DNA of 64,000 bases from Bacteroidota bacterium (GCA_034659275.1 JAYEGY010000049.1:121-64120), one strand, 5' to 3'. Counted from the stretch's first letter, positions 49,767-62,224 are shown. Made by a program: numbers and translations. Notes: a model not told the origin generated them from the letters alone.

Positions 49767-50501
49767 TTACCTGCCGGGGACATCCAGCAGGGTGGTTCGT
49801 TTCTTCATGATTCTCAGGATAAGCCAGCTTAGAAAACCGAAGGCTAGAAGCACAGCCCACATCGGGTGAACATCCAAACGTCCTTCAATAGTATAGTTTC
49901 TGGCAATATCAAGGAGTGCAAATACCAGGAATATTGCTCCAAAGCCGTTATATTCTCTTTTAAGTACGTTCCTCATGGAAAAGGGAAGGTCAGACCGGGT
50001 GTAGTTACGGAATGAAGGGATGAACGAACGCACTTTTTCTGACCACAGGTCATAAGATTCGCTGAACTTGTTTCTCAGGAACTGTTCTTCGGCAAACATT
50101 ATCCTTTCATAATACAGCCAGTATGCAAGGCAAAAAATAATGACTATCCATACTGACCGGAGGAAAATAACTGGGCCGAGCCACATAAAAAAGTTACCAA
50201 GGTAAAGGGGATGCCTTACCATCGAATAGATGCCTCTTGTATTAAGGCTTTCAGCCACCTGTTTATTTATATTTCTTCCGGAAGTGTTTTTGGGCGTCCG
50301 TCCCACTGTTAGTGCCCTTATTACCTGCCCAAGGAGGCTTACAGCAAGGCATCCTACTTCCACTGTCGGGCGATATTCAAGATTTCTGACTCCTGAAAGG
50401 TAAATATATACCAGCGAGGGGATAAAAATACACAGTGGCAGCCAGCCCCTCCTTTTAAAAAGCCAGTTTCCGCTTCTCTCAAATTCATGCACCAGTGCCA
50501 T
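49767..50501 (-). CDS. ICMT/PEMT-family membrane methyltransferase (lipid A phosphate methyltransferase LmtA-like)
   Basis: G.WLF..R..LP, LNT.GIYS.VRHPLY.GNF, YYERI..AEE.FL, KREY. Confidence 0.75.
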   Translation of the reverse strand: MALVHEFERSGNWLFKRRGWLPLCIFIPSLVYIYLSGVRNLEYRPTVEVGCLAVSLLGQVIRALTVGRTPKNTSGRNINKQVAESLNTRGIYSMVRHPLYLGNFFMWLGPVIFLRSVWIVIIFCLAYWLYYERIMFAEEQFLRNKFSESYDLWSEKVRSFIPSFRNYTRSDLPFSMRNVLKREYNGFGAIFLVFALLDIARNYTIEGRLDVHPMWAVLLAFGFLSWLILRIMKKRTTLLDVPGR

Positions 50502-50542
50502 GGATCATTGCTTTATTCTACCGGCCAAATGTATTAAATAAT

Positions 50543-51694
50543 TCAGAAACTGTACTTCATCCTTAAATAAACCAGGTTCATCCTGGTTCGTTCATCATTC
50601 AGTTCAGCATTGAAATATTGCCATATAAATGAGAAATCAAGGTTTTCTGCCAGTGATATATCCGCGCCTGGGCCTGCATAAAATCCATCGAGTCCGGGAT
50701 ACCAAATAGCTGACAGGCTGAGCTTAAACAGGGGTGTCACGGGGTATGTCACGCTTCCAAATAATGAAAATTCCGAGAACGCCAGGTCTTTTGCTGACAG
50801 GTTTTCGGAATAAAAATCATTGAAACTGCTGAATGTAAGAGGTTCATTGCAATACATTGCCTGTAACTGCAACATGCCTGTTCCGGAGAATGCACGATCG
50901 AAGCCTATTGTAAACAGGCCTGTTCCCGTAGTATCGGAAAAATTATCTTTTGGCTGGAACCAGCTTACCTCACCTCTGAATGAAGTGCTTCCTATAGCTC
51001 CTGACCAGCCTGTGCCAAAAACAATATCTTCATTGTCGACCATTCCCGCCAAAAACTGTATATCGTATCCCCATTTATTAAACCTGTACAAGCCTGCAAG
51101 TGTAAGATCTTCTTCACTGTTCATGGCTGCTGCCACCTCAATGGTGGAAGAAAAACTGGGATACACCTGTAATCTGACGGCATCACTTCCCGGCCTTTCG
51201 GGGTAATCAATATCAAAATAGGAATATGCATTGAAAATATCATTGGGATTCCATACAAAGGTCTGGCCCCAGTTTATCCTCTGGCGACCCGCCTTCAATT
51301 GAACGGGTCCCATTGCAATATCGATCCAGAAACGATCAATCCTGCTGTTCAGAATAAAGGAATTTTTATTGAAAATATTTGTTGCAAGATCCACTAAACC
51401 ATTGTCTGCAGCGAGTCTGGAGGCATAGGTCGGATCCAGTTTTATCATATCACCCGTAAAAAAACGGTTTCTTAACTCCAGTGCAAAAGTCACCTTTGAC
51501 CCGGCATACAGCCTGAAATTTAACCTGTTATGTATCAGGTTATCATTTATCCAGTCTCCTTCCACTTCTTCAAAGATCATGCTCTGCAGATTACTTACAT
51601 AACCGTTTAAACTTACCGGTGATTGTTGGTTCTGCCCTTTTGCTGCAGGCAGAGTAAGAATGAATACCATCAACAGGATGCTTAATATCCTCAT
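50543..51694 (-). CDS. Probable outer-membrane beta-barrel protein
   Basis: Signal peptide; GRQRINWG..FVWNP.D.F, terminal KYSF. Confidence 0.75.
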   Translation of the reverse strand: MRILSILLMVFILTLPAAKGQNQQSPVSLNGYVSNLQSMIFEEVEGDWINDNLIHNRLNFRLYAGSKVTFALELRNRFFTGDMIKLDPTYASRLAADNGLVDLATNIFNKNSFILNSRIDRFWIDIAMGPVQLKAGRQRINWGQTFVWNPNDIFNAYSYFDIDYPERPGSDAVRLQVYPSFSSTIEVAAAMNSEEDLTLAGLYRFNKWGYDIQFLAGMVDNEDIVFGTGWSGAIGSTSFRGEVSWFQPKDNFSDTTGTGLFTIGFDRAFSGTGMLQLQAMYCNEPLTFSSFNDFYSENLSAKDLAFSEFSLFGSVTYPVTPLFKLSLSAIWYPGLDGFYAGPGADISLAENLDFSFIWQYFNAELNDERTRMNLVYLRMKYSF

Positions 51695-51700
51695 AATACT

Positions 51701-52393
51701 CTACTTTCTTTTCCTTATTTCGTCAGATGCCACTTTCCCGTCTTCAAGGGTTATCACTCTCCTTGCTTTTTTCACCACCCTGTTATCATGTGTTGAGAAA
51801 ATAAACGTGATATGCTCATCCTTGTTGAGCTTTTCCATAATATCAAGGAGAGTTTCGGTTGATTTTGTATCGAGGTTGGCGGTGGGCTCATCCGCCAGGA
51901 CGAATCTTGGCTTCGAGGCAAGCGCACGTGCCACTGCAACCCTTTGTTGCTGGCCTCCTGATAAGCGTGCCGGCCGGCTGTCAACACGGTCTTCCAGACC
52001 CACTGCCTTAAGCAGTTCCATTGTCCGTGCATCTCTTTTCTCCCTGGGCCATTTCTGGAGGTTCATTATGAACTCTATGTTTTCCTTTGCCGTAAGAACA
52101 GGGATCAGGTTGTATGACTGGAAAACAAATCCTATATTTTTCATCCTGAAATCGATGATAGCTGATGATTTTAAGGTTGACAGATCAGTGCCGTTAACCA
52201 ATATTCTTCCTTCAGTGGGCATGTCAAGTCCGCCTATCATATTTAGCAGCGTTGTTTTCCCGGAACCGGAGGGTCCTACTATGGCAGCAAATTCACTCTC
52301 CTCAACATCCAGGCTTACATCATTTACAGCATGTACTTTAACATGAGTGGTGTTGTAAACCTTATGCACATTATTTAACTCAAGTACTTTCAT
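51701..52393 (-). CDS. ABC ATP-binding protein (LolD/MacB type)
   Basis: GPSGSGKT, GFVFQ, LSGGQQQR, LADEPT, STH. Confidence 0.95.
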   Translation of the reverse strand: MKVLELNNVHKVYNTTHVKVHAVNDVSLDVEESEFAAIVGPSGSGKTTLLNMIGGLDMPTEGRILVNGTDLSTLKSSAIIDFRMKNIGFVFQSYNLIPVLTAKENIEFIMNLQKWPREKRDARTMELLKAVGLEDRVDSRPARLSGGQQQRVAVARALASKPRFVLADEPTANLDTKSTETLLDIMEKLNKDEHITFIFSTHDNRVVKKARRVITLEDGKVASDEIRKRK

Positions 52394-52421
52394 TGCTTAT
52401 TATTTAAATATTTATTATCAT

Positions 52422-53849
52422 CTATTCTGTTCTCAATGCTTCGGCCGGGTCGAGTTTCAGTGCCTTAATTGCGGGATAAACCGAAGACAGTACGCCGGTT
52501 ATTATTATTAAAACAGTTACTATCAGGAAAAAATTAATCCCTATATTGGGATAGATATGTACTGAAAAACCCATGGCTTCAAATCCTTCCTGCATTGACC
52601 CGAAGTTTATGCCTTTCGTAGATGTGATTTCAATTGCTATCCAGCTAACTATCATTCCGGCCACACCGCCGGTCAGCGACAGGAAGACCGATTCGGTCAT
52701 TATCATCCTGAATACTTTCTTCTTATTCATCCCGATAGCCGTCAGCATTCCAAGTTCCTTTGTTCTTTCAAGGACAACCATAAGCATGGTATTCACTATG
52801 CCGAATGCGAGAGCAGCAAGTATAATAAGCATGAAGAAACCATACATTGCTTCTGCGAACTCTGTCAGCATAGCCATATCCGGTTGGATTTCCTTCCAGT
52901 TCATCACCTCAAAGTCAGGGAACTCGGTCCTGAGCCTCCTGGTCATGGCTTTGGTATCATCAACATCTTTTAACCTTACTATGATCTTGTGAGCGGTGTT
53001 TTCAGGTAATTCAACCAGGCGTCTCAGTATGCCGTCACGGACAAATACATGGCTTGATTCAAATGCACTGTTTGGAATATCATAAATACCTCCAACCCTG
53101 AAAACACCACCTGTCTGGTGATTATTCACGTCAACAAAAGTCAGGGTGAACTTGGCTCTTTGCCTGAATGTTTGTGATTTTTCCAGTATCATCCTGCCGT
53201 ATTCCTTTTCCTGTTTAGCTGAAATAACTGATCTCATTGCTTTCTTAAAACTTCTCTCGTTGTCAAACCTCTCACCTGAGAATTGACTTATACCTGATAT
53301 AATTTCCTCGGGCAATTCCTCTGAGCGCAATTCTTCAATCACTTTTTCATTGATTTCGTACCTGATAATATTCAGGTTTTTTGCCAGTTCGAAGCCTACG
53401 TATGCCAGCTCCTCCCTCTCGGTGTCGCCAAAATAATCACCTGTACCGGGTTCAAGTTCTTTATATAAGCCGAATACTTCTTTTTCTTTTTCTGGATTTA
53501 TCCCTATGATGTTTACACCGGCACCTTTCCTGGCCGTGTTTGCCATGCCGACAACAAATAGTCTGTCGCATACAGCTTCCACCTCCTCCATCCCCGATAT
53601 CTGATCCTTTATTGACTTAACGTTCTCGATATTACATGCAAGGTCATTATTTGACCTGAAGTCTTTCTGGCTTATCTGTATATGAGCCAGTTCGTTTTCG
53701 AGCACTTCATCAACGCGCTGATCGACGGCTCCGTTCATTACGCCAACTGCAAATACTCCGGCAAAGATGCCCACCGTAACCGAGGCAATAACCACAAGAC
53801 TTCTTATCTTGTTTCGCCATACGTTTTTCCAGGCTGTTTTTGTAATCAT
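52422..53849 (-). CDS. ABC permease (MacB/FtsX family) with insert domain
   Basis: WKNVWRNK.R, NTMLM.V.ER..ELG.L.AIG, P..AL. Confidence 0.92.
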   Translation of the reverse strand: MITKTAWKNVWRNKIRSLVVIASVTVGIFAGVFAVGVMNGAVDQRVDEVLENELAHIQISQKDFRSNNDLACNIENVKSIKDQISGMEEVEAVCDRLFVVGMANTARKGAGVNIIGINPEKEKEVFGLYKELEPGTGDYFGDTEREELAYVGFELAKNLNIIRYEINEKVIEELRSEELPEEIISGISQFSGERFDNERSFKKAMRSVISAKQEKEYGRMILEKSQTFRQRAKFTLTFVDVNNHQTGGVFRVGGIYDIPNSAFESSHVFVRDGILRRLVELPENTAHKIIVRLKDVDDTKAMTRRLRTEFPDFEVMNWKEIQPDMAMLTEFAEAMYGFFMLIILAALAFGIVNTMLMVVLERTKELGMLTAIGMNKKKVFRMIMTESVFLSLTGGVAGMIVSWIAIEITSTKGINFGSMQEGFEAMGFSVHIYPNIGINFFLIVTVLIIITGVLSSVYPAIKALKLDPAEALRTE

Positions 53850-53862
53850 CTTAGTATTTATT

Positions 53863-55275
53863 TTATGCTTTGAGTGCGTTCACTTCTTTCATCTTCATTA
53901 TTTTGACAACAGGATATATTGCTGCTACAAGTACTATTATTGCAACAACCAGTGATTGCGACAGGAAGTAATTATCAATCCACTGGAATGCCATAACGGG
54001 TTCGAATCCATAATCTTCCCATATTTTTGCCAGATTGGCTGAAAAATGTATGGGATGGTAATACCCGTAAATTATTGTTGGTACGGCCACTGCCACACCT
54101 GCCAGTATGCCAAGCAATCCAATGAAAATCAATTCGTAAACCATCACCCCGGCCATTTTCGTTTTCTGCATGCCGATGGCAATAAGCACACCAGTTTCCC
54201 TTCTCCTCTCTGCTGTCATCATAAGTACGGTGCCAAATACACCAAAGGCAATCACCAGGTACAGGATGCCGATCATTATCATACCGCTCTTGTTGTCTGC
54301 TTCCAACTGCTGTACAAGGGTCTCATTCATTTCTTTCCATCCCAGGACGCGGTATGGACTTTCAAGCTTTGAATCAAGGCGTTGAATGGTGTTTTCAATT
54401 GCATCATTATCGTTGTTCTTCAGATGCACCACCAATGAAGTTAACATACCATCAGCATAGTACAAGGTCTGGCAGACATCCACAGGCAGGTAAACGATTT
54501 TATTGTCAATATCCGGGTTTGGAACACTTACTATCCCCTTAATTACGTATTTACCTGCCGCGGTATGTCCATGATAAGCCTGCCCAATCAGGATAATTGT
54601 ATCTCCCCGCTCCAGTCCCAGGTAGCGGGACAGCCTGTCACCAACGAGGGCCGCATTCTCCCCCATGCTGAAATAGGCATTATCAACACCTGCATATTTT
54701 TCAAACAACGGCATGAGCAATTCTTCATCATCCTTCTTGATCCCGAGGTCAACCTGCAGCCTTCCGTCGGAAGAATAAGCATTACCCTTGAAAAGATCCA
54801 TGTTTTTTGCCAGGTAAGCGGGGATGTCTTCAGATTTAATAGCTGTTATTGCTTCCTCAGTCAGACGGTATTTAACCAGTTTGTCTTCCACATCCGACAA
54901 TAGTTTTTCCTTTTCAGGGTCGATACCCATAACCATTACTCCCTTTGAACGGGATCCACTTGATGCAAGGGCAAAGGACTCGAAACGGGGAATGACATCC
55001 TCGACGTTCTTATCATCTGTTATTTTACTCCTCAGCTCGGGTGTATTCCTGATTACATTATCAACTACTTTATTTTCCCAGAACTCTTCATCCTGAACCT
55101 GGATATAGCCCGAGTATGATTCTATTACATTCTTATACATCGAATCATAGGTCCCAAGCTGTATTGATCTCATTACTAGAGCAAAGAATACTGCAAAGAA
55201 TACTGACGATGCCGTAATAATCGTCCTTCGCTTATTCCGCCAGAGATTTCGCCAGGCCATTATATAATTTTTCAT
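53863..55275 (-). CDS. ABC permease (MacB/FtsX family) with insert domain
   Basis: AWRNLWRNKRRT, ERRRE.G.L.AIG. Confidence 0.92.
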   Translation of the reverse strand: MKNYIMAWRNLWRNKRRTIITASSVFFAVFFALVMRSIQLGTYDSMYKNVIESYSGYIQVQDEEFWENKVVDNVIRNTPELRSKITDDKNVEDVIPRFESFALASSGSRSKGVMVMGIDPEKEKLLSDVEDKLVKYRLTEEAITAIKSEDIPAYLAKNMDLFKGNAYSSDGRLQVDLGIKKDDEELLMPLFEKYAGVDNAYFSMGENAALVGDRLSRYLGLERGDTIILIGQAYHGHTAAGKYVIKGIVSVPNPDIDNKIVYLPVDVCQTLYYADGMLTSLVVHLKNNDNDAIENTIQRLDSKLESPYRVLGWKEMNETLVQQLEADNKSGMIMIGILYLVIAFGVFGTVLMMTAERRRETGVLIAIGMQKTKMAGVMVYELIFIGLLGILAGVAVAVPTIIYGYYHPIHFSANLAKIWEDYGFEPVMAFQWIDNYFLSQSLVVAIIVLVAAIYPVVKIMKMKEVNALKA

Positions 55276-55293
55276 CTTTATATATTTTTTGAA

Positions 55294-56043
55294 CTATCTC
55301 ACCCTCTTCAGGTTTTGCTGTGAGAAGAAACCATCTTCTATAGCTATATTGAATTCAATCTCCATTATTTCCACCACGGTCTTATATCCTTCTTCGTCTT
55401 CAGGTATTATTTCGAGTATGGTGGGAATAAGCCTTCCATCCATAGTTTTTATGTTTTTTCCAAGTTCTGTTCTCACGAGGTAACCGTCTTCGTCATAAAG
55501 TTCAGCCTTCAGGAAGAGGTAATCCTCTTTATCGATCCATCTTATCTGGTGGCCCCAGATTACTGCAGCGTCTTCCCTGGGCGTCATTTTTATGCGGTAA
55601 CACAGTCGGTCTTCGATCTCTTCCTCGCCTGTAATTTCGTGGGTATAATCCTCCACAACAGATGATTCGTTAAGAATATCCTCATTCGTATAATCAGATC
55701 CCATCCATCCCTGTGACATCATGGAGGGAGGCAGCTTGATCATCCTGTCTATCGTGGGATTCCAACTCCACATCTCTGACTCCCTTTTCAGATAAGCCTG
55801 CCCTTTGTCCCTGGCAGGGGAAGTAATAAGGGTAAGTGCATAGTCTGTGCCCTTTGTCCAGTTCTTGAATTCCAGTGTCCTTTCCCATTCGGGACGGATA
55901 ATTGTCATTTTCATAATACTGTAACTCGATTCCTCGCCATTTATCTTCTCATTTGCCCTTTTCACTATCTCACTTGCATCCTGGGCCCCTATAAATGAAC
56001 ACGTACAAAAGATCAGTAAAAATGTAAATAGTCCTTTTTTCAT
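55294..56043 (-). CDS. Outer-membrane lipoprotein-sorting (LolA-like) protein
   Basis: Signal peptide; WMGSDYTNED, FF...NL. Confidence 0.85.
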   Translation of the reverse strand: MKKGLFTFLLIFCTCSFIGAQDASEIVKRANEKINGEESSYSIMKMTIIRPEWERTLEFKNWTKGTDYALTLITSPARDKGQAYLKRESEMWSWNPTIDRMIKLPPSMMSQGWMGSDYTNEDILNESSVVEDYTHEITGEEEIEDRLCYRIKMTPREDAAVIWGHQIRWIDKEDYLFLKAELYDEDGYLVRTELGKNIKTMDGRLIPTILEIIPEDEEGYKTVVEIMEIEFNIAIEDGFFSQQNLKRVR

Positions 56044-56054
56044 AATGTATTTGG

Positions 56055-56627
56055 TTATCTGTATTTTTTCAATATTCTCTCTTTTATTTTCTCTACGTGG
56101 AATATATCAGGATATGCAAGATAGTTTATACCTATGCCATCAAGTAAAGCTCCGAAGATAACGGCTTCGGTATAAGGATCCTCGCATCCCCGTGATTCAA
56201 AATACGATTTCAATAAACCAATGTAGTTACCTATTACTTTTGCAAGTCTTTCTTCCACAAGCTTTAATACCGGTTCCTGCAGAAAAAGTGTGAAATAAAG
56301 TCTCCAGAAACAGGTGTCCTCATTCAGTAATTTAAAATATCGGTCAAGCAGAAATTCCATTTCATCGCCTGTGAGCACCCCATCCTTATTCGGATCCATC
56401 AGCTTATCAATATTCTCAAGACCGGTATATATTATAGCCTTAATAAGATCTTCCTTACTCTCGAAATAATTGTACAACAAACCCTTTGATATCTCTGCTT
56501 TTTTGGCAATACTGCTTATTGTGGTTCCATGAAAACCATTTGTTGCGAACAATTCAAGAGCCGTACGCATTATCAGGGCTTTCTTTTCCTCCCTTATTCC
56601 TTCAAGCTGCTGTTTCGTTCTGGGCAT
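56055..56627 (-). CDS. TetR/AcrR family regulator
   Basis: ALELFA..GF..TTI..IA..A.ISKGLLYNYF.SKE; start MPRT at 56627 (alternative 56639). Confidence 0.93.
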   Translation of the reverse strand: MPRTKQQLEGIREEKKALIMRTALELFATNGFHGTTISSIAKKAEISKGLLYNYFESKEDLIKAIIYTGLENIDKLMDPNKDGVLTGDEMEFLLDRYFKLLNEDTCFWRLYFTLFLQEPVLKLVEERLAKVIGNYIGLLKSYFESRGCEDPYTEAVIFGALLDGIGINYLAYPDIFHVEKIKERILKKYR

Positions 56628-56635
56628 ATCGTTTT

Positions 56636-56698
56636 TCATTAAACGTTCAGTCATTAATTCATTAAACAAAATACCGTTTTTGAATGAACGGTCAGTCA
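56636..56698. promoter_or_regulatory. Two candidate TetR operators
   Basis: TGAATGAACGGTCAGTCA (56681-56698, 14/18 self-complementary) and TCATTAAACGTTCAGTCA (56636-56653) share AACG(G/T)TCAGTCA. Confidence 0.7.
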
Positions 56699-56729
56699 AA
56701 TATACTAATTTTAAAATGTAGCCTCCAAA
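56697..56729 (-). promoter_or_regulatory. Housekeeping promoter of the TetR-LolA-ABC operon
   Basis: TTTG (56729-56726), 21-bp spacer, TATATTTG (56704-56697), overlapping the operator. Confidence 0.75.
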
Positions 56730-56769
56730 TTTTTTGTGTTAATTTTTAGTTAATACCTTTTTTATAGAA

Positions 56770-57210
56770 TAATGGAGTGATGGATTAATGGAATAATAGG
56801 GGTTTTATTAATTTATGACACTATTAAATTTCATATAATCGGTCTCTTTATTCTAAATCCTGTTGGTGTTGATCTCCAGATCAACGCCTCATGATGGGGT
56901 GGGTCTTTATGCCTCCTATGTCGCGGTTCTACTTCTGTCCCCGACTTTGTCAGACGAAGACTTTGGGCAAAGTCTGAAGCTCGAAGAGCGTAGGTGGAAG
57001 AACCGTGCCGCGGGACTTCGTCGAGCTTGTAAAATTTCGTTTGCTTTCGGTAAATTAAGTTTCCTCGGTTCCATCATTTCAGTATTGCTCGCTCCCACAT
57101 GCCACAATCACCATCCGCTCGCGAGCTCGTCACCCTCACTTGTTTTCAGCAAGTTCAGGTTTCTCGGTTCCATTTTCCCCATATTCCATTTTAATGAACC
57201 CCACCCCCTC
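56770..57210. repeat. Mosaic of nested REP-like and simple-repeat modules
   Basis: TGGAAT-type arms, hairpin ggtgttgatct/agatcaacgcc, agacttt/aaagtct hairpin, two ctcggttccat copies, and the 60-bp repeat copy B (57077-57138). Confidence 0.7.
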
Positions 57211-57319
57211 TTATCCCCTGTATCGTCAAAATCCAGCAACACAATAATATTGGACCTTTCATGTTATATTTTTGAAAGATTTTTTATCTTTAGCAGGTTA
57301 TATACAAAGAATTTAAGCA

Positions 57320-58960
57320 ATGGCTAAGCTCAAACTGTCACTTGGATTAATCCCCTCAACATCAAAGATAGAGCAGGAAGAAAATGCCCTTATCGCAGAA
57401 TATGAAAAACTGAAAAAATTCAGTGAGTCAGACGAACTGAAGCACTTTAATGAACTGGATGTTAAGGTTAATTCCACCGATTTCAAAACCAGGAAGCAAC
57501 ATATTGAAAACCTCCGGTTCAAAGATTCTGAAGAACATAACAAAGAGCAGGAGTTTAAGCGTCTTAACAAGAGCAAGGACCTGGTGATGTATTTCAAAAC
57601 ACGCGACAGTGTGGATTTGAAGAAATACCAGGAGCTCGAAGGTTCGGACAAGATCAAACGTTTTGAAGAACTCAAAAAAACAGTTAATTCAGCTGCCTTT
57701 AAGGAAAAGCAAAAAATGAAGCCCATAACCTTCAAGAGCACTGAAGAATACAGCAAGTTCAAAGAATACAAAAAGCTGAAGTCCGATTCAAACGTTAAAG
57801 CATATAACAAGCTCTTGAAAAAGGGGAAGAAGGAAGAAGCCGAAAAATTGGTTGGATTAGCCAGCATAAAAAGGTATCTCGCCCTGAGTGAATTTATCAA
57901 TTCCGATGCCTTCCTTGAAAAAAAGAATATGAAGCCAATCACTTTCAAGGATACTGATGAATATAAATTGCTGCAGGAATACAAAAGCCTTAAAAACGAT
58001 CCCGATATTAAATTCTTTTACAAGTTTAAGAACTCGAAAGAACTCGCCAACTATAAAAAGCTTGAAGGATCTCAGAAAGTATCCAGGCACGAGGAACTTA
58101 AGAAATATCTCCAGACCGACGAGTTCAAAGAAAGGAAGGAATATCTGCTCGATAAGAAACGATATGAAAAATCCGATCTCTATAAGCTTGAGCAGGAATA
58201 TGAAAAGCTTAAAAACAGTGATGATATCGTATGGTATTTCAAGGTTAAAAACTCAGACAAATTCGACTTCATTAAACACAGGGAGCTTACTTTCAGTGAT
58301 GAATTTGATGAAAACTCCCTTGATACAAAGAAATGGCTGACCAATCATTACTGGGGCGACCGGCTCTTGAATGACAGGTATTCACTGGAAACAGATCTTC
58401 ATTGCTATACTGAATCGGAAAATTTTGATGTGGGCAGCAGCATACTGAGCATAAGCACCAGGCCGCAGAAAAAAGAAGGTAAGGTATGGAATCCTGCCCT
58501 GGGCGGTTTCAGGAACAAAGAATTTAATTACACCTCGGGCATCATAAACACCGGAAAAAGTTTCCGTCAGAAACACGGGATATTCCAGGCAAAGATAAAA
58601 CTGAACACAGCGATAGGCCCCAGGCATGCTTTCTATTTGCTTGCCGACAAGGTAACCCCCCATATCGATGTTTGCCGCAGCGACAAGGGCAAGGTATGCA
58701 TGGATATCTTCACAAATGGTAACAGGTCGGCAAAAACTTCCATCGGTTCAAAATACGGAAGGGGCTTTTATATTTACACCCTTGAATGGACACCGAAGGC
58801 ACTTGTCTGGAAAATCAATGATTACGAGGTTTTCAGGCAGACGGCAAATATCCCCGATGAACCCATGTATATTAATTTTTCAGGAGGCCTCGACAAACCA
58901 ATGTCAGGATCCAGTTCCATGGAAATCGATTGGGTAAGGGTATACCAGTTTAAAAACTAA
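57320..58960 (+). CDS. GH16-fold protein with long Lys/Glu-rich repeat N-terminus; catalytic motif degenerate
   Basis: FSDEF....LD..KW, YTSG.I.T, FYIYTLEWTP..LVWKIND, PMY, MEIDWVRVYQ; ExDxxE position reads HIDVCR; no signal peptide. Confidence 0.8.
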   Translation: MAKLKLSLGLIPSTSKIEQEENALIAEYEKLKKFSESDELKHFNELDVKVNSTDFKTRKQHIENLRFKDSEEHNKEQEFKRLNKSKDLVMYFKTRDSVDLKKYQELEGSDKIKRFEELKKTVNSAAFKEKQKMKPITFKSTEEYSKFKEYKKLKSDSNVKAYNKLLKKGKKEEAEKLVGLASIKRYLALSEFINSDAFLEKKNMKPITFKDTDEYKLLQEYKSLKNDPDIKFFYKFKNSKELANYKKLEGSQKVSRHEELKKYLQTDEFKERKEYLLDKKRYEKSDLYKLEQEYEKLKNSDDIVWYFKVKNSDKFDFIKHRELTFSDEFDENSLDTKKWLTNHYWGDRLLNDRYSLETDLHCYTESENFDVGSSILSISTRPQKKEGKVWNPALGGFRNKEFNYTSGIINTGKSFRQKHGIFQAKIKLNTAIGPRHAFYLLADKVTPHIDVCRSDKGKVCMDIFTNGNRSAKTSIGSKYGRGFYIYTLEWTPKALVWKINDYEVFRQTANIPDEPMYINFSGGLDKPMSGSSSMEIDWVRVYQFKN

Positions 58961-58962
58961 TA

Positions 58963-59055
58963 GCAGGGTGCAGGGAGCATGGGGCAGGGAAAGAGCCTGA
59001 TTTTTTCTCACTCCCTGCCCCCTGCCCCCTGCTCCCTGCTCCCTGCTCCCTGCCC
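58963..59055. repeat. Inverted heptamer arrays (GCAGGGA/G and its complement); possible terminator
   Basis: gcagggtgcagggagcatggggcaggga ... ctccctgccccctgccccctgctccctgctccctgctccctgccc immediately after the stop codon. Confidence 0.8.
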
Positions 59056-59150: not shown

Positions 59151-60797
59151 ATGTCCAAAAAATCATTTCTTATCCTTCTATGTCTGATTGTTCTGTCTGG
59201 GCCAATTTTTTCGCAAGGTTACGGTGAACTGACCCGCCAGGACACCCTGCGCGGATCATTAACACCTGAGAGGGAATGGTGGGATCTTACCTTCTACCAT
59301 ATGAATATTAAAACCAACCCTGCCGACAGCACCATACACGGATATGTTTTGATAAGGTACGATGTGTTAAGTCCTTATGACCTGATGCAGATCGATCTCC
59401 AGCCACCCCTGAAAATAAAAAGTATCACCCAGGATGGTAAACAGCTGGAATTCGTTCGCGATGGTAACGCCTGGTTTGTCCGGATGGCCAAGGAACAGAG
59501 GGCAGGTGAATCCAATGAAGTTAAAGTATATTATGGGGGCAAACCCAAGGTAAGCCGCCGACCGCCCTGGGACGATGGACTGACATGGGATTATGACGAT
59601 AACGGTAATCCCTTTTATGCTACGACATGCCAGGGAGGTGGAGCCAGCATATGGTGGCCATGCAAAGACCATATGTATGACGAGCCTGACAGCATGCGGT
59701 TCAGCATAACAACTCCCGGTGACCTTATGGATGTATCAAATGGTAGGTACAAAGGAGTTACGGTAAATGAAGACGGCACAAAAACATGGCACTGGTATGT
59801 TTATAATCCCATCAATAATTACGGGATAAATATCAATGTGGGTGATTATGTTCACTTCGGCGAGGTATATGATGGCATACTCGGTGAGCTCGACTGCGAT
59901 TATTATGTACTGAGCTATAACCTTGAAAAGGCAAAAGAGCATTTCAAACAGGTGCCCATGATGCTCGAGGCCTTTGAATACTGGTTTGGTCCCTATCCCT
60001 TTTACGAAGATGGTTACAAGCTGGTTGAAGCCCCTTACCTGGGAATGGAACACCAGAGCTCAGTTACCTATGGCAATGGCTATATGAACGGATACCGTGG
60101 AAGGGATATTAGCGGTACCGGATGGGGTGAGAAATTTGATTTTATTATCATTCACGAATCGGGCCATGAATGGTTTGCCAATAATATCACCTATAAGGAC
60201 ATTGCCGACATGTGGATCCACGAAAGTTTCATTGCCTATTCCGAAGGCCTTTTTGTAGAGTACTGGTATGGTAAAGAGGCGGGCGCTGAATACCTCAGGG
60301 GCGTTAGGTCGAATATAAACAATGACCGTCCCATCATAGGTATCTATAATGTAAATCGTTCAGGCTCAGGTGATATGTACCAGAAAGGTGCAACAATGCT
60401 TCATATGATACGGCAGATCGTCAATGATGATGATAAATGGAGAGATATATTACGAGGACTTAATAAAACCTTCTGGCACCAGACCGTGAGCACTGACCAG
60501 ATAGAGGGGTACATGGAAGAGCATACCGACTTTGAGTTGAAACCCGTTTTCGACCAGTTTCTTCGTGACACAAGGATCCCGGTGCTGGAGTACCGGTTTA
60601 CGGATAATGGACTTAGGTACCGCTGGGGAAATACCGTGAGGGGTTTTAATATGCCAGTTAAGGTCTACCTCGACGGTAAAGAAACCTGGCTCGAGTTTTC
60701 AGACAGGGGCTGGTCGTTCCTTGAGGGTATTGAACCCTGTGAACTGCTTGTAGATAAAGATTTCTATGTTGCCGTACTTAATATAATGGGAGAATGA
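59151..60797 (+). CDS. M1 family aminopeptidase
   Basis: GMEH, HESGHEW, downstream HES, Y.KG; signal peptide. Confidence 0.92.
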   Translation: MSKKSFLILLCLIVLSGPIFSQGYGELTRQDTLRGSLTPEREWWDLTFYHMNIKTNPADSTIHGYVLIRYDVLSPYDLMQIDLQPPLKIKSITQDGKQLEFVRDGNAWFVRMAKEQRAGESNEVKVYYGGKPKVSRRPPWDDGLTWDYDDNGNPFYATTCQGGGASIWWPCKDHMYDEPDSMRFSITTPGDLMDVSNGRYKGVTVNEDGTKTWHWYVYNPINNYGININVGDYVHFGEVYDGILGELDCDYYVLSYNLEKAKEHFKQVPMMLEAFEYWFGPYPFYEDGYKLVEAPYLGMEHQSSVTYGNGYMNGYRGRDISGTGWGEKFDFIIIHESGHEWFANNITYKDIADMWIHESFIAYSEGLFVEYWYGKEAGAEYLRGVRSNINNDRPIIGIYNVNRSGSGDMYQKGATMLHMIRQIVNDDDKWRDILRGLNKTFWHQTVSTDQIEGYMEEHTDFELKPVFDQFLRDTRIPVLEYRFTDNGLRYRWGNTVRGFNMPVKVYLDGKETWLEFSDRGWSFLEGIEPCELLVDKDFYVAVLNIMGE

Positions 60798-62224
60798 TTA
60801 TGCGTAAATGGATAATTGTCATTGTCTTATTTGCGGCTGCCCTTCTTTCATGCTCCAGGAAAGAAACAAAGCCCAATTTCGTTTTTATTCTTGCCGATGA
60901 CCTCGGTTGGACAGACCTGGGATGTTACGGCAGCACCTTCCATGAAACACCCAATCTCGACAGGCTGGCATCAGGAGGTATGGTCTTTACAGATGCATAC
61001 ACAAGCAGTCCTGTTTGCTCCCCCACCAGGGCAAGTATAATGACGGGTAAACACCCAGCAAGAGTAAACATAACCGACTGGATACATGGCCTTGATCCTA
61101 AAAACAGGAAGCTGCTGGGCCCTGAGGATAAGCACCACCTTGCTCTTGAAGAAGAAACGATAGCCGAGACATTGAAAAAGAACGGCTATAAAACCTTCTT
61201 TGCCGGCAAGTGGCATCTGGGTGATACGGGATACTTCCCGGAAGACCAGGGATTCGATATTAACAAGGGAGGCCATCATATGGGTCAGCCCCCCGGAGGA
61301 TACTATTCACCCTTTAAAAATCCTAAACTGGAAGACGGACCCGAAGGGGAATACCTTACAAACAGGCTGACGGATGAGTCACTAAGCTTCCTGCAATCAC
61401 TTGAAGGAGAGCCCTTCTTCCTCTACCTTGCCTTTTATACCGTCCACACACCAATCCAGGCATGTGAAAAACATATTGATTACTTTGAGGAAAAGAAAGA
61501 AGAGCTGGGTGAAGAAGGTGAGCCGGTCCTTGTTGATGAACATGAAGCAAGTACCACCATAAACCAGGTTAATGCACCTTACGCCTCGATGGTATACAGC
61601 ATGGATGAGAACGTTGGCCGCATTATTGAATATCTAGAGGAAAGTGGTTTGTCAAAAAACACTTACATTATATTCACTTCTGATAACGGGGGGCTAACAA
61701 CAGTGGCCCGTAACAGGTTGGCCCCAACAGCAGTTACGCCTCTTAGGGCGGGCAAGGGCTGGTGCTATGAGGGAGGCATACGTGTACCCCTCATTATTAC
61801 AGGGCCGGGTATACGGAACAAGACAACTGATATTCCTGTTATCAGCACCGATTTTTATCCCACCATACTGGACATGGCGGGACTGCGGTCGATGCCCGGT
61901 CAGCACACCGACGGTAAAAGCCTTTTCCCACTTGTCACTGAAAACAAGGCACCCGAAAGAGAAGCTATTTACTGGCATTACCCCCACTATCATGGAAGCC
62001 AGTGGACTCCCGGTGCTGCCATCCGCAAAGGTGACTGGAAGCTTATTGAGTTTTACCATTACGACAAGACAGAGCTTTACGATCTCTCTGAAGATATTGG
62101 TGAGACAAAAGACCTTTCGGCAGAGTATCCCGAAAAAACAGCCGAGCTAAAAGCATTGTTAAGGAAGATGCAAAAAGAAACAGGAGCTCTTTTACCCGAG
62201 AAAAATCCTGATTTTGGAAAGTAA
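60794..62224 (+). CDS. S1 formylglycine-dependent sulfatase (Cys type), lipoprotein
   Basis: Lipobox LLSC; ADDLG, CSPTR, GKWHLG, SDNGG, GK...YEGG.RVP. Confidence 0.95.
   Translation: MIMRKWIIVIVLFAAALLSCSRKETKPNFVFILADDLGWTDLGCYGSTFHETPNLDRLASGGMVFTDAYTSSPVCSPTRASIMTGKHPARVNITDWIHGLDPKNRKLLGPEDKHHLALEEETIAETLKKNGYKTFFAGKWHLGDTGYFPEDQGFDINKGGHHMGQPPGGYYSPFKNPKLEDGPEGEYLTNRLTDESLSFLQSLEGEPFFLYLAFYTVHTPIQACEKHIDYFEEKKEELGEEGEPVLVDEHEASTTINQVNAPYASMVYSMDENVGRIIEYLEESGLSKNTYIIFTSDNGGLTTVARNRLAPTAVTPLRAGKGWCYEGGIRVPLIITGPGIRNKTTDIPVISTDFYPTILDMAGLRSMPGQHTDGKSLFPLVTENKAPEREAIYWHYPHYHGSQWTPGAAIRKGDWKLIEFYHYDKTELYDLSEDIGETKDLSAEYPEKTAELKALLRKMQKETGALLPEKNPDFGK

Follow-up and report, generated by a model that had tools for sequence, protein, structure and literature searches.

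Sequence-predicted GH16 pseudoenzymes fused to helical repeats form a conserved Bacteroidales family with a probable non-hydrolytic role

What function can be assigned to a protein that keeps the fold of a glycoside hydrolase family 16 (GH16) glucanase and has replaced the two glutamates with which such enzymes cut their substrate? The question is raised by a gene in a 64,000-nt stretch of DNA from a Bacteroidota bacterium (GCA_034659275.1 JAYEGY010000049.1:121-64120), referred to here as the window. A first-pass annotation of the window had described the gene product as a cytoplasmic GH16 pseudoenzyme carried on a rod of helical repeats, and all the coordinates given for it (the open reading frame (ORF) at 57320-58960, MKPITFK at 57716 with a copy 213 bp further on, and HIDVCR at 58661-58678) were found to hold. 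We consider it fairly probable that the protein, a member of a conserved single-copy Bacteroidales family, is a non-hydrolytic cytoplasmic binding or scaffold protein and that its ligand is probably a molecule other than glucan. The gene and the parts of its product that carry this reading are the following.

57320..58960 including the stop codon, + strand: complete ORF of 546 amino acids (P0001), an uninterrupted reading frame
58286..58957, + strand: GH16-fold beta-jelly-roll domain, residues 323-546, identified by Pfam, by a profile search against the PDB, and by Foldseek
58622..58636, + strand: RHAFY, residues 435-439, the counterpart of the WPxxW strand of the -1 subsite, in which the first Trp is replaced by Arg and the second by Tyr
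58661..58678, + strand: HIDVCR, residues 448-453, which replaces ExDxxE, with His at the nucleophile site, the Asp kept, and Arg at the acid/base site

The C-terminal domain was matched by Pfam PF00722 at residues 399-539 (E = 3e-11, above the gathering score), and the Pfam and NCBIfam scans of the protein returned no match other than GH16. A profile built from 80 family members and compared with laminarinases in the PDB retrieved the enzymes of Thermotoga petrophila (4dfs, E = 1e-24) and T. maritima (3azx, E = 5e-24). The AlphaFold2 model of the protein, with a predicted local distance difference test score (pLDDT) of 92.3 and a predicted template modelling score (pTM) of 0.67, contained a GH16 jelly roll and a helical repeat array, as had been proposed, and was matched by Foldseek to the same two structures with E-values of about 1e-15 and a TM-score on the target of 0.7. 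Together with Zobellia ZgLamA (4bow), these are GH16_3 endo-beta-1,3-glucanases with a homologous beta-jelly roll, and the landmarks in common are FxDxF at the domain start, YTS, G-x-[FI]-E-x-[KR]-x-K, EW, W-x-[IV]-[ND]-G, and a terminal DW/Y-V-R-V-Y.

The profile alignment on 4dfs placed the family segment 'thAFW' on WPALW and 'PHIDIFK' on GEIDIME. H448 thereby occupies the nucleophile position, D450 that of the retained Asp, and R453 the acid/base position, which bears out the earlier proposal that HIDVCR stands for ExDxxE and RHAFY for the WPxxW-type motif. The motifs were placed differently in one pairwise phmmer alignment (with 3iln); this placement was rejected in favour of the profile alignment, with which the AFWML-type strand of relatives agrees.

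More than 1,180 relatives were found by a word-indexed search, and an exhaustive search of 50%-identity representatives yielded 203 clusters at E <1e-30, with lengths of 440-786 amino acids. Among 301 genomes spread over the phylum, the full architecture was confined to Bacteroidales, and the matches outside this order were canonical GH16 only. Within Bacteroidales, the family was carried, mostly as a single copy, by 58 of 201 genomes and 51 of 168 genera. It was also detected in 430 species genomes by a pattern scan made with a 14-sequence alignment; the best 80 of these 430 were all metagenome-assembled genomes (MAGs) of uncultured Bacteroidales from sediments, fens, lakes, soils, and reactors. 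Williamwhitmania taraxaci is a cultured carrier (WP_092437829.1), and Breznakibacter sp. is also a carrier, its named records being MAGs.

Whether the lost glutamates are a peculiarity of the window copy was answered by the representatives of the 50%-identity clusters, of which 0/125 had both glutamates of ExDxxE; the corresponding strands read HxDxxK/R, QxDxxK/R, ExDxxK/R, QxNxxE, and others. The canonical GH16 genes that the same profile found in other Bacteroidota had E-I-D-x-x-E in 19/19 cases. In a maximum-likelihood tree built with a quick search mode, a single branch of length 1.9 split 44 family domains from 16 canonical GH16 domains, with a support of 100 in the Shimodaira-Hasegawa-like approximate likelihood ratio test (SH-aLRT). 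The ratio of non-synonymous to synonymous substitution rates (dN/dS), estimated pairwise against orthologues of 81-93% identity, was 0.04-0.10 in the repeat region and jelly roll alike. As no representative retained ExDxxE, dN/dS was this low, and one fully supported branch set the family apart, the catalytic loss is, as judged from these comparisons, ancient and family-wide rather than a decay of the window copy. On sequence grounds, the status of the GH16 domain as a pseudoenzyme is well supported and retaining hydrolysis by the window protein appears very unlikely, as the first-pass annotation had anticipated.

The same data decide whether the gene is a former glucanase gene that is decaying and now functionless. 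The catalytic residues have been lost, and one copy in a complete genome (G473:C1:3844226-3846545, L163) was interrupted by six in-frame stop codons (one TGA, one TAG, and four TAA); this copy is a true pseudogene, unlike the intact copies elsewhere. However, the ORF was intact in 57/58 positive genomes of the order sample, the dN/dS values point to purifying constraint, 203 clusters have persisted at the 50% identity level, and the substituted motif is itself conserved. The decay reading is already refuted by the selection and conservation data, and we attach practically no weight to it.

A protein that has lost the canonical residues could still be catalytically active if the GH16 scaffold supported a non-canonical chemistry, such as His/Asp catalysis, a lyase-like or phospho- or sulfo-transfer reaction on an anionic substrate, or hydrolysis by D450 with D/E443. 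Among 120 close relatives, the strand reads H-[ILV]-[DN]-[IV]-C-[RHK], with His and Cys at 100% and Arg at 97.5%, and H448, D450, C452, and R453 are essentially invariant; K425 is invariant family-wide, an anionic substrate would suit the basic residues of the cleft, and there is precedent in the PL7 family, in which beta-jelly-roll lyases work by His, Tyr, and Arg catalysis. In the wider family, however, position 448 is occupied by H/Q/E/R, 450 by D/N/T, and 453 by K/R/E/H, and such free variation is rare for catalytic residues; moreover, GH16 is the sole Pfam/NCBIfam match. The only near-invariant polar residues family-wide are N368, S406, K425, and N500, and therefore no conserved catalytic set is visible. 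As for alternative catalytic acids in the cleft, for which the first-pass annotation had left room, an acidic residue is present at 443 in 96/125 representatives and D450 is kept in the close clade, but in 12/125, non-acidic residues occupy all of 443, 448, 450, and 453. Because the positions of the catalytic strand vary freely and no polar set exists beyond K425, N368, S406, and N500, alternative chemistry is disfavoured, and we regard it as unlikely.

The sugar-binding subsites were altered along with the glutamates. In laminarinases, the two Trp of the WPxxW strand form the -1 platform, and Asn, Arg, and Trp line the -2 subsite (PMC4606783). In the present family, the first -1 Trp is variable and the second is Trp in 78/125 representatives and Tyr in the window protein; at the -2 subsite, various residues stand in for the Asn, Leu/Ile/Met occupy the place of the Arg, and the seven-residue loop bearing the Trp is deleted family-wide. 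The cleft still has an aromatic side chain at 439, Glu or Gln at 423, the invariant K425, and Asp or Asn at 450. Compared with laminarinases, the window protein thus has both glutamates replaced; lacks the first -1 Trp, the -2 Asn/Arg, and the seven-residue Trp loop; has no signal peptide and no polysaccharide utilization locus (PUL); and carries a helical repeat array of about 320 amino acids at its N-terminus.

These losses bear on the idea of an intracellular beta-glucan lectin or sensor, put forward in the first-pass annotation for a cyclic or storage glucan, in which the dead cleft would still bind beta-1,3 or beta-1,3-1,4 glucan. Laminarinases are the closest fold, and part of the cleft has been retained: position 439, where laminarinases have their second -1 Trp, is still aromatic, E/Q423 and K425 are present on the strand next to it, and D450 is also kept. 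There is also precedent, as inactive GH16-like domains occur in glucan-recognizing proteins, e.g., the insect beta-glucan recognition proteins (beta-GRPs). The invertebrate beta-1,3-glucan recognition proteins bind glucan mainly via a separate N-terminal domain. They share with the present family a GH16 fold that has remained under selection after the loss of one or both catalytic residues, but they are eukaryotic and secreted, and their loss is scattered, whereas here it extends to a whole bacterial clade (GH16_4; PMC6827312, PMC6403176). Catalytic residues have been lost in about 9% of GH16_4 members, which are scattered and not monophyletic (PMC6827312).

Against the glucan lectin stands the family-wide loss of elements that are conserved in laminarinases (PMC4606783), namely the first Trp of the -1 subsite and, at the -2 subsite, Asn, Arg, and the Trp loop. 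In Rv0315 of Mycobacterium tuberculosis (GH16_9), a structurally characterized inactive GH16 protein in which the laminarinase -2/-3 residues are not conserved, no glucan binding was observed, and this was attributed to the loss of the same residues (PMC4606783). Rv0315 resembles the window protein in its bacterial GH16 fold and non-conserved -2 residues; it differs in that it keeps the ExDxxE glutamates and both -1 Trp, is secreted with a signal peptide, and consists of a single domain, whereas the window protein lacks the glutamates and a signal peptide and carries a repeat array. In addition, no conserved genes for glucan synthesis or use were found nearby. Because the sugar subsites have been lost along with the glutamates, the glucan-lectin idea is weak; this part of the first-pass annotation was not upheld, and we consider it quite unlikely.

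The gene neighbourhoods were examined in close and distant members of the family. A TetR/LolA-like/FtsX-FtsX-ABC/barrel/ICMT operon adjoins the gene in divergent orientation in 66 close relatives. In the window, this operon occupies 49767-56699 on the - strand and encodes TetR, a LolA-like protein (PF17131), two FtsX/MacB-type permeases, an ABC ATPase, a DUF1302-like barrel, and an ICMT/PEMT methyltransferase. In one genome (G310, L158), the TetR/LolA-like operon still adjoins the gene, but in inverted orientation. Unrelated housekeeping genes (ATP synthase genes including atpD, lepA, gyrB, fmt, kdsA, and pstSCA) surround the gene in 40 distant members, and the operon adjacency is therefore interpreted as lineage synteny. 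As a guide to function, the neighbourhood was rejected, since the adjacency seen in the close clade is lost in these members. Pointers to glucan metabolism were found in none of the neighbourhoods of the 66 close and 40 distant members, and a SusC/SusD-like or carbohydrate-active enzyme (CAZyme)-cluster (PUL) context was found in 0/111 neighbourhoods. A defence or phage origin was also considered and rejected, as there were no PADLOC or PHROGs matches.

Ahead of the jelly roll, the protein consists of a short N-terminal motif and a tandem array of helical repeats.

57320..57373, + strand: conserved N-terminal motif MAKLKLSLGLIPSTSKIE, residues 1-18, with G9, P12, T14, and E18 kept in 63-75 of 80 aligned sequences
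57374..57517, + strand: leading long helix and half repeat unit, residues 19-66 (model helices 14-35, 38-50, and 53-64)
57518..57730, + strand: repeat 1, residues 67-137 (FKDSEE...MKPIT), z = 14.5 and 16.5 against repeats 2 and 3, respectively; five model helices
57731..57943, + strand: repeat 2, residues 138-208, from the shuffle-based alignment score and model helices
57944..58156, + strand: repeat 3, residues 209-279, from the shuffle-based alignment score and model helices
58157..58285, + strand: trailing half repeat, residues 280-322, immediately followed by the jelly roll; aligned with the first half of repeat 1 and of repeat 3 at z = 8-9

The three full 71-residue units mutually aligned at z = 11.5-16.5 against composition-preserving shuffles, and the leading half unit (residues 19-66) showed weak similarity to the second half of the repeat unit. 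The helical array with a period of about 71 residues, as described in the first-pass annotation, was thus recovered, while the count of about four repeats was revised to three full units and two halves. The exact copies of MKPITFK at 57716 and 57929 reflect this period, with a spacing of 213 bp. When the repeat region was folded alone by AlphaFold2, 22 short helices, five per unit, were obtained with a pLDDT of 94, and an isolated beta-bridge was formed at the KPITF segment of successive units. A rod shape of the array is plausible from the sequence and the model. The length of the N-terminal region ahead of the jelly roll ranges from roughly 100 to 590 amino acids among relatives, and the repeat number varies about six-fold.

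No fold match was found when the repeat model was compared with the PDB by Foldseek (best E 0.83, TM-score <=0.32), and the weak matches were to elongated coiled coils; a Pfam scan of the repeat region in 37 members gave nothing beyond noise. The array shares with alpha-solenoid repeat proteins (TPR, Sel1, ARM/HEAT, and PUF) the tandem short helices, conserved aromatic and Leu positions, and variable copy number, but differs from them in its 71-residue period, its five helices per unit, and its lack of a match in Pfam or, by Foldseek, in the PDB. As modelled, the 71-residue five-helix repeat is an undescribed type without a structural or profile relative. Fusion of the repeats to other domains was considered and rejected, as the repeat-only matches (P0262, P0225, P0256, and P0257) were truncated or frameshifted copies running into the jelly roll.

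The cellular location of the protein was assessed from its export signals. No signal peptide was recognized across 126 family N-termini, in which the longest hydrophobic run was <=8 residues (median 4), in agreement with the first-pass annotation, and a search of the protein for membrane segments found none. The best 10-residue hydropathy had a family median of 1.19 vs 2.6-3.75 in three secreted neighbours. The N-terminal motif, with the family consensus [LIF]-[KR]-x-[LF]-[LF]-G-x-[IFY]-P-x-T-x-K-[IYV]-E, is shorter and more polar than a signal peptide would be; it is conserved family-wide, to the same degree as the jelly-roll core.

The alternative to a cytoplasmic protein would be export by an unrecognized route, which would make the protein a non-catalytic glycan binder of vesicles or of the cell surface. 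The strong conservation of the N-terminal motif and its hydrophobic and basic character would suit a targeting signal, but the motif is far more conserved than signal peptides are, and the hydrophobic run did not exceed 8 residues in any of the 126 members. The gene of the close clade adjoins the LolA-like/MacB-type export operon, and PF17131 was present in 49/58 family-positive vs 70/143 family-negative genomes, an odds ratio of about 5.7 that ignores phylogeny; however, the synteny is lost in distant members. There is no C-terminal domain of the type IX secretion system (T9SS), as the protein ends with the last jelly-roll strand. A 472-residue metagenome representative (P0219) has a classical signal peptide and an unrelated N-terminal region, joined to the final half repeat and to a jelly roll of the family type, in which EIDVFK is found. 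The joining of a signal peptide to the same C-terminal domain would favour export, but P0219 looks chimeric; it may be an artefact of assembly or else a secreted branch of the family. Taken together, we judge export decidedly improbable.

The reading that we favour remains that of a non-hydrolytic cytoplasmic binding or scaffold protein. In the GH16 jelly-roll cleft of the family, both catalytic glutamates are replaced (by His/Gln and by Lys/Arg), and the rebuilt, mostly basic cleft would bind a ligand other than beta-glucan, such as a peptide or an anionic polymer or lipid. The repeat array would serve as a spacer or multivalent platform; the scaffolding or cytoskeletal role suggested in the first-pass annotation was neither borne out nor contradicted. 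The isoelectric point (pI) was above 8.5 in 77% of members. Several points weigh against this reading. The gene neighbourhoods yield no ligand candidate, and the cytoplasmic location, which is the most likely one, is deduced from the absence of recognizable export signals. The geometry and charge distribution of the cleft are likewise inferred from the sequence. The strict conservation of His, Asp, Cys, and Arg within the close clade could reflect a chemical rather than a binding role. Finally, D450 is kept in the close clade and 443 is acidic in most members, so that an unconventional carboxylate pair (D450 and the acidic residue at 443) is formally conceivable in that clade.

A further idea arose from residue covariation in the family alignment. 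Residue 12 (57353-57355) in the N-terminal motif covaries with residue 453 (58676-58678) in the former catalytic strand in the manner of a charge swap: when Pro was present at 12, Lys/Arg was found at 453 in 69/83 members, and when Lys/Arg was present at 12, Glu/Asp was found at 453 in 11/22 and Lys/Arg in only 3. The first 20 residues were modelled more confidently when the jelly roll was present, although the alignments behind the two models differed. An intramolecular contact would not survive the roughly six-fold variation in repeat number, whereas an intermolecular one would. The covariation and the variable repeat number suggest possible docking of the N-terminal peptide in the cleft of a second molecule. 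The protein would then belong to an intracellular structural system with a five-helix solenoid of adjustable length and a jelly-roll docking socket, in which insertion of the N-terminal motif into another molecule's cleft would give head-to-tail dimers or filaments. The covariation could arise from clade structure alone; as this would give the same pattern, the docking idea is graded low, and we put it forward as a speculative and improbable elaboration.

The ATG of the gene is the first start codon after a stop, and the 546-residue orthologues start at the same Met. The flanks of the gene contain the following elements.

57267..57274, + strand: TATTTTTG, which fits the Bacteroidetes -7 promoter consensus TAnnTTTG, 46 nt 5' of the ATG
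58962..59047, + strand: long GC-rich hairpin of 86 nt with GCAGGG/CCCTGC units, directly 3' of the stop codon (minimum free energy -60.3 kcal/mol, z = -7.5)

TAnnTTTG is the -7 consensus of Bacteroides promoters, and TATTTTTG is a putative promoter element of the pseudo-GH16 gene on the basis of this match. The hairpin is probably a terminator or an element resembling repetitive extragenic palindromes (REP-like). An Rfam scan of the gene flanks returned only sub-threshold matches to microRNA-precursor hairpins, all of them to this downstream hairpin. Since the neighbours are on the opposite strand or set apart by the promoter-like element or the hairpin, the gene looks monocistronic. The intergenic region between the TetR gene and the pseudo-GH16 gene is unusually long (620 bp, 56700-57320) and contains a 34-nt direct repeat with copies at 57041-57074 and 57140-57173 (79% identical). 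In one relative (L001), two small ORFs without Pfam matches were called in the equivalent region. Downstream of the gene, a unit at 59151-62224 on the + strand encodes a peptidase of the M1 family and a sulfatase, each of which has a signal peptide. The two overlap by 4 bp at 60794-60797, and the unit was present only in the closest relatives.

GH16 pseudoenzymes are known, but none of those considered here (Rv0315 and the GH16_4 cases) combines the lack of a signal peptide with fusion to a repeat array. No description of the present family was found in the GH16 subfamily roadmap (PMC6827312) or in full-text literature searches, and the literature searches found no described bacterial clade in which both GH16 catalytic glutamates are lost throughout; a literature search on Williamwhitmania likewise yielded nothing of relevance. 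More than 1,000 proteins of the family are labelled "glycoside hydrolase family 16" or "beta-glucanase" in public databases, and these labels are contradicted by the catalytic-motif data. Consequently, a protein that is almost certainly unable to cut glucan inflates the CAZyme counts of Bacteroidales from the environment (digesters, sediments, fens, and soils). Knowledge of the ligand could yield a new modular binding scaffold. The family would represent a monophyletic case in which an extracellular enzyme fold was recruited to an intracellular, non-catalytic job. As it is present in about 30% of the sampled Bacteroidales genera, identification of its ligand would reveal what a gene that is common in an ecologically dominant order does.

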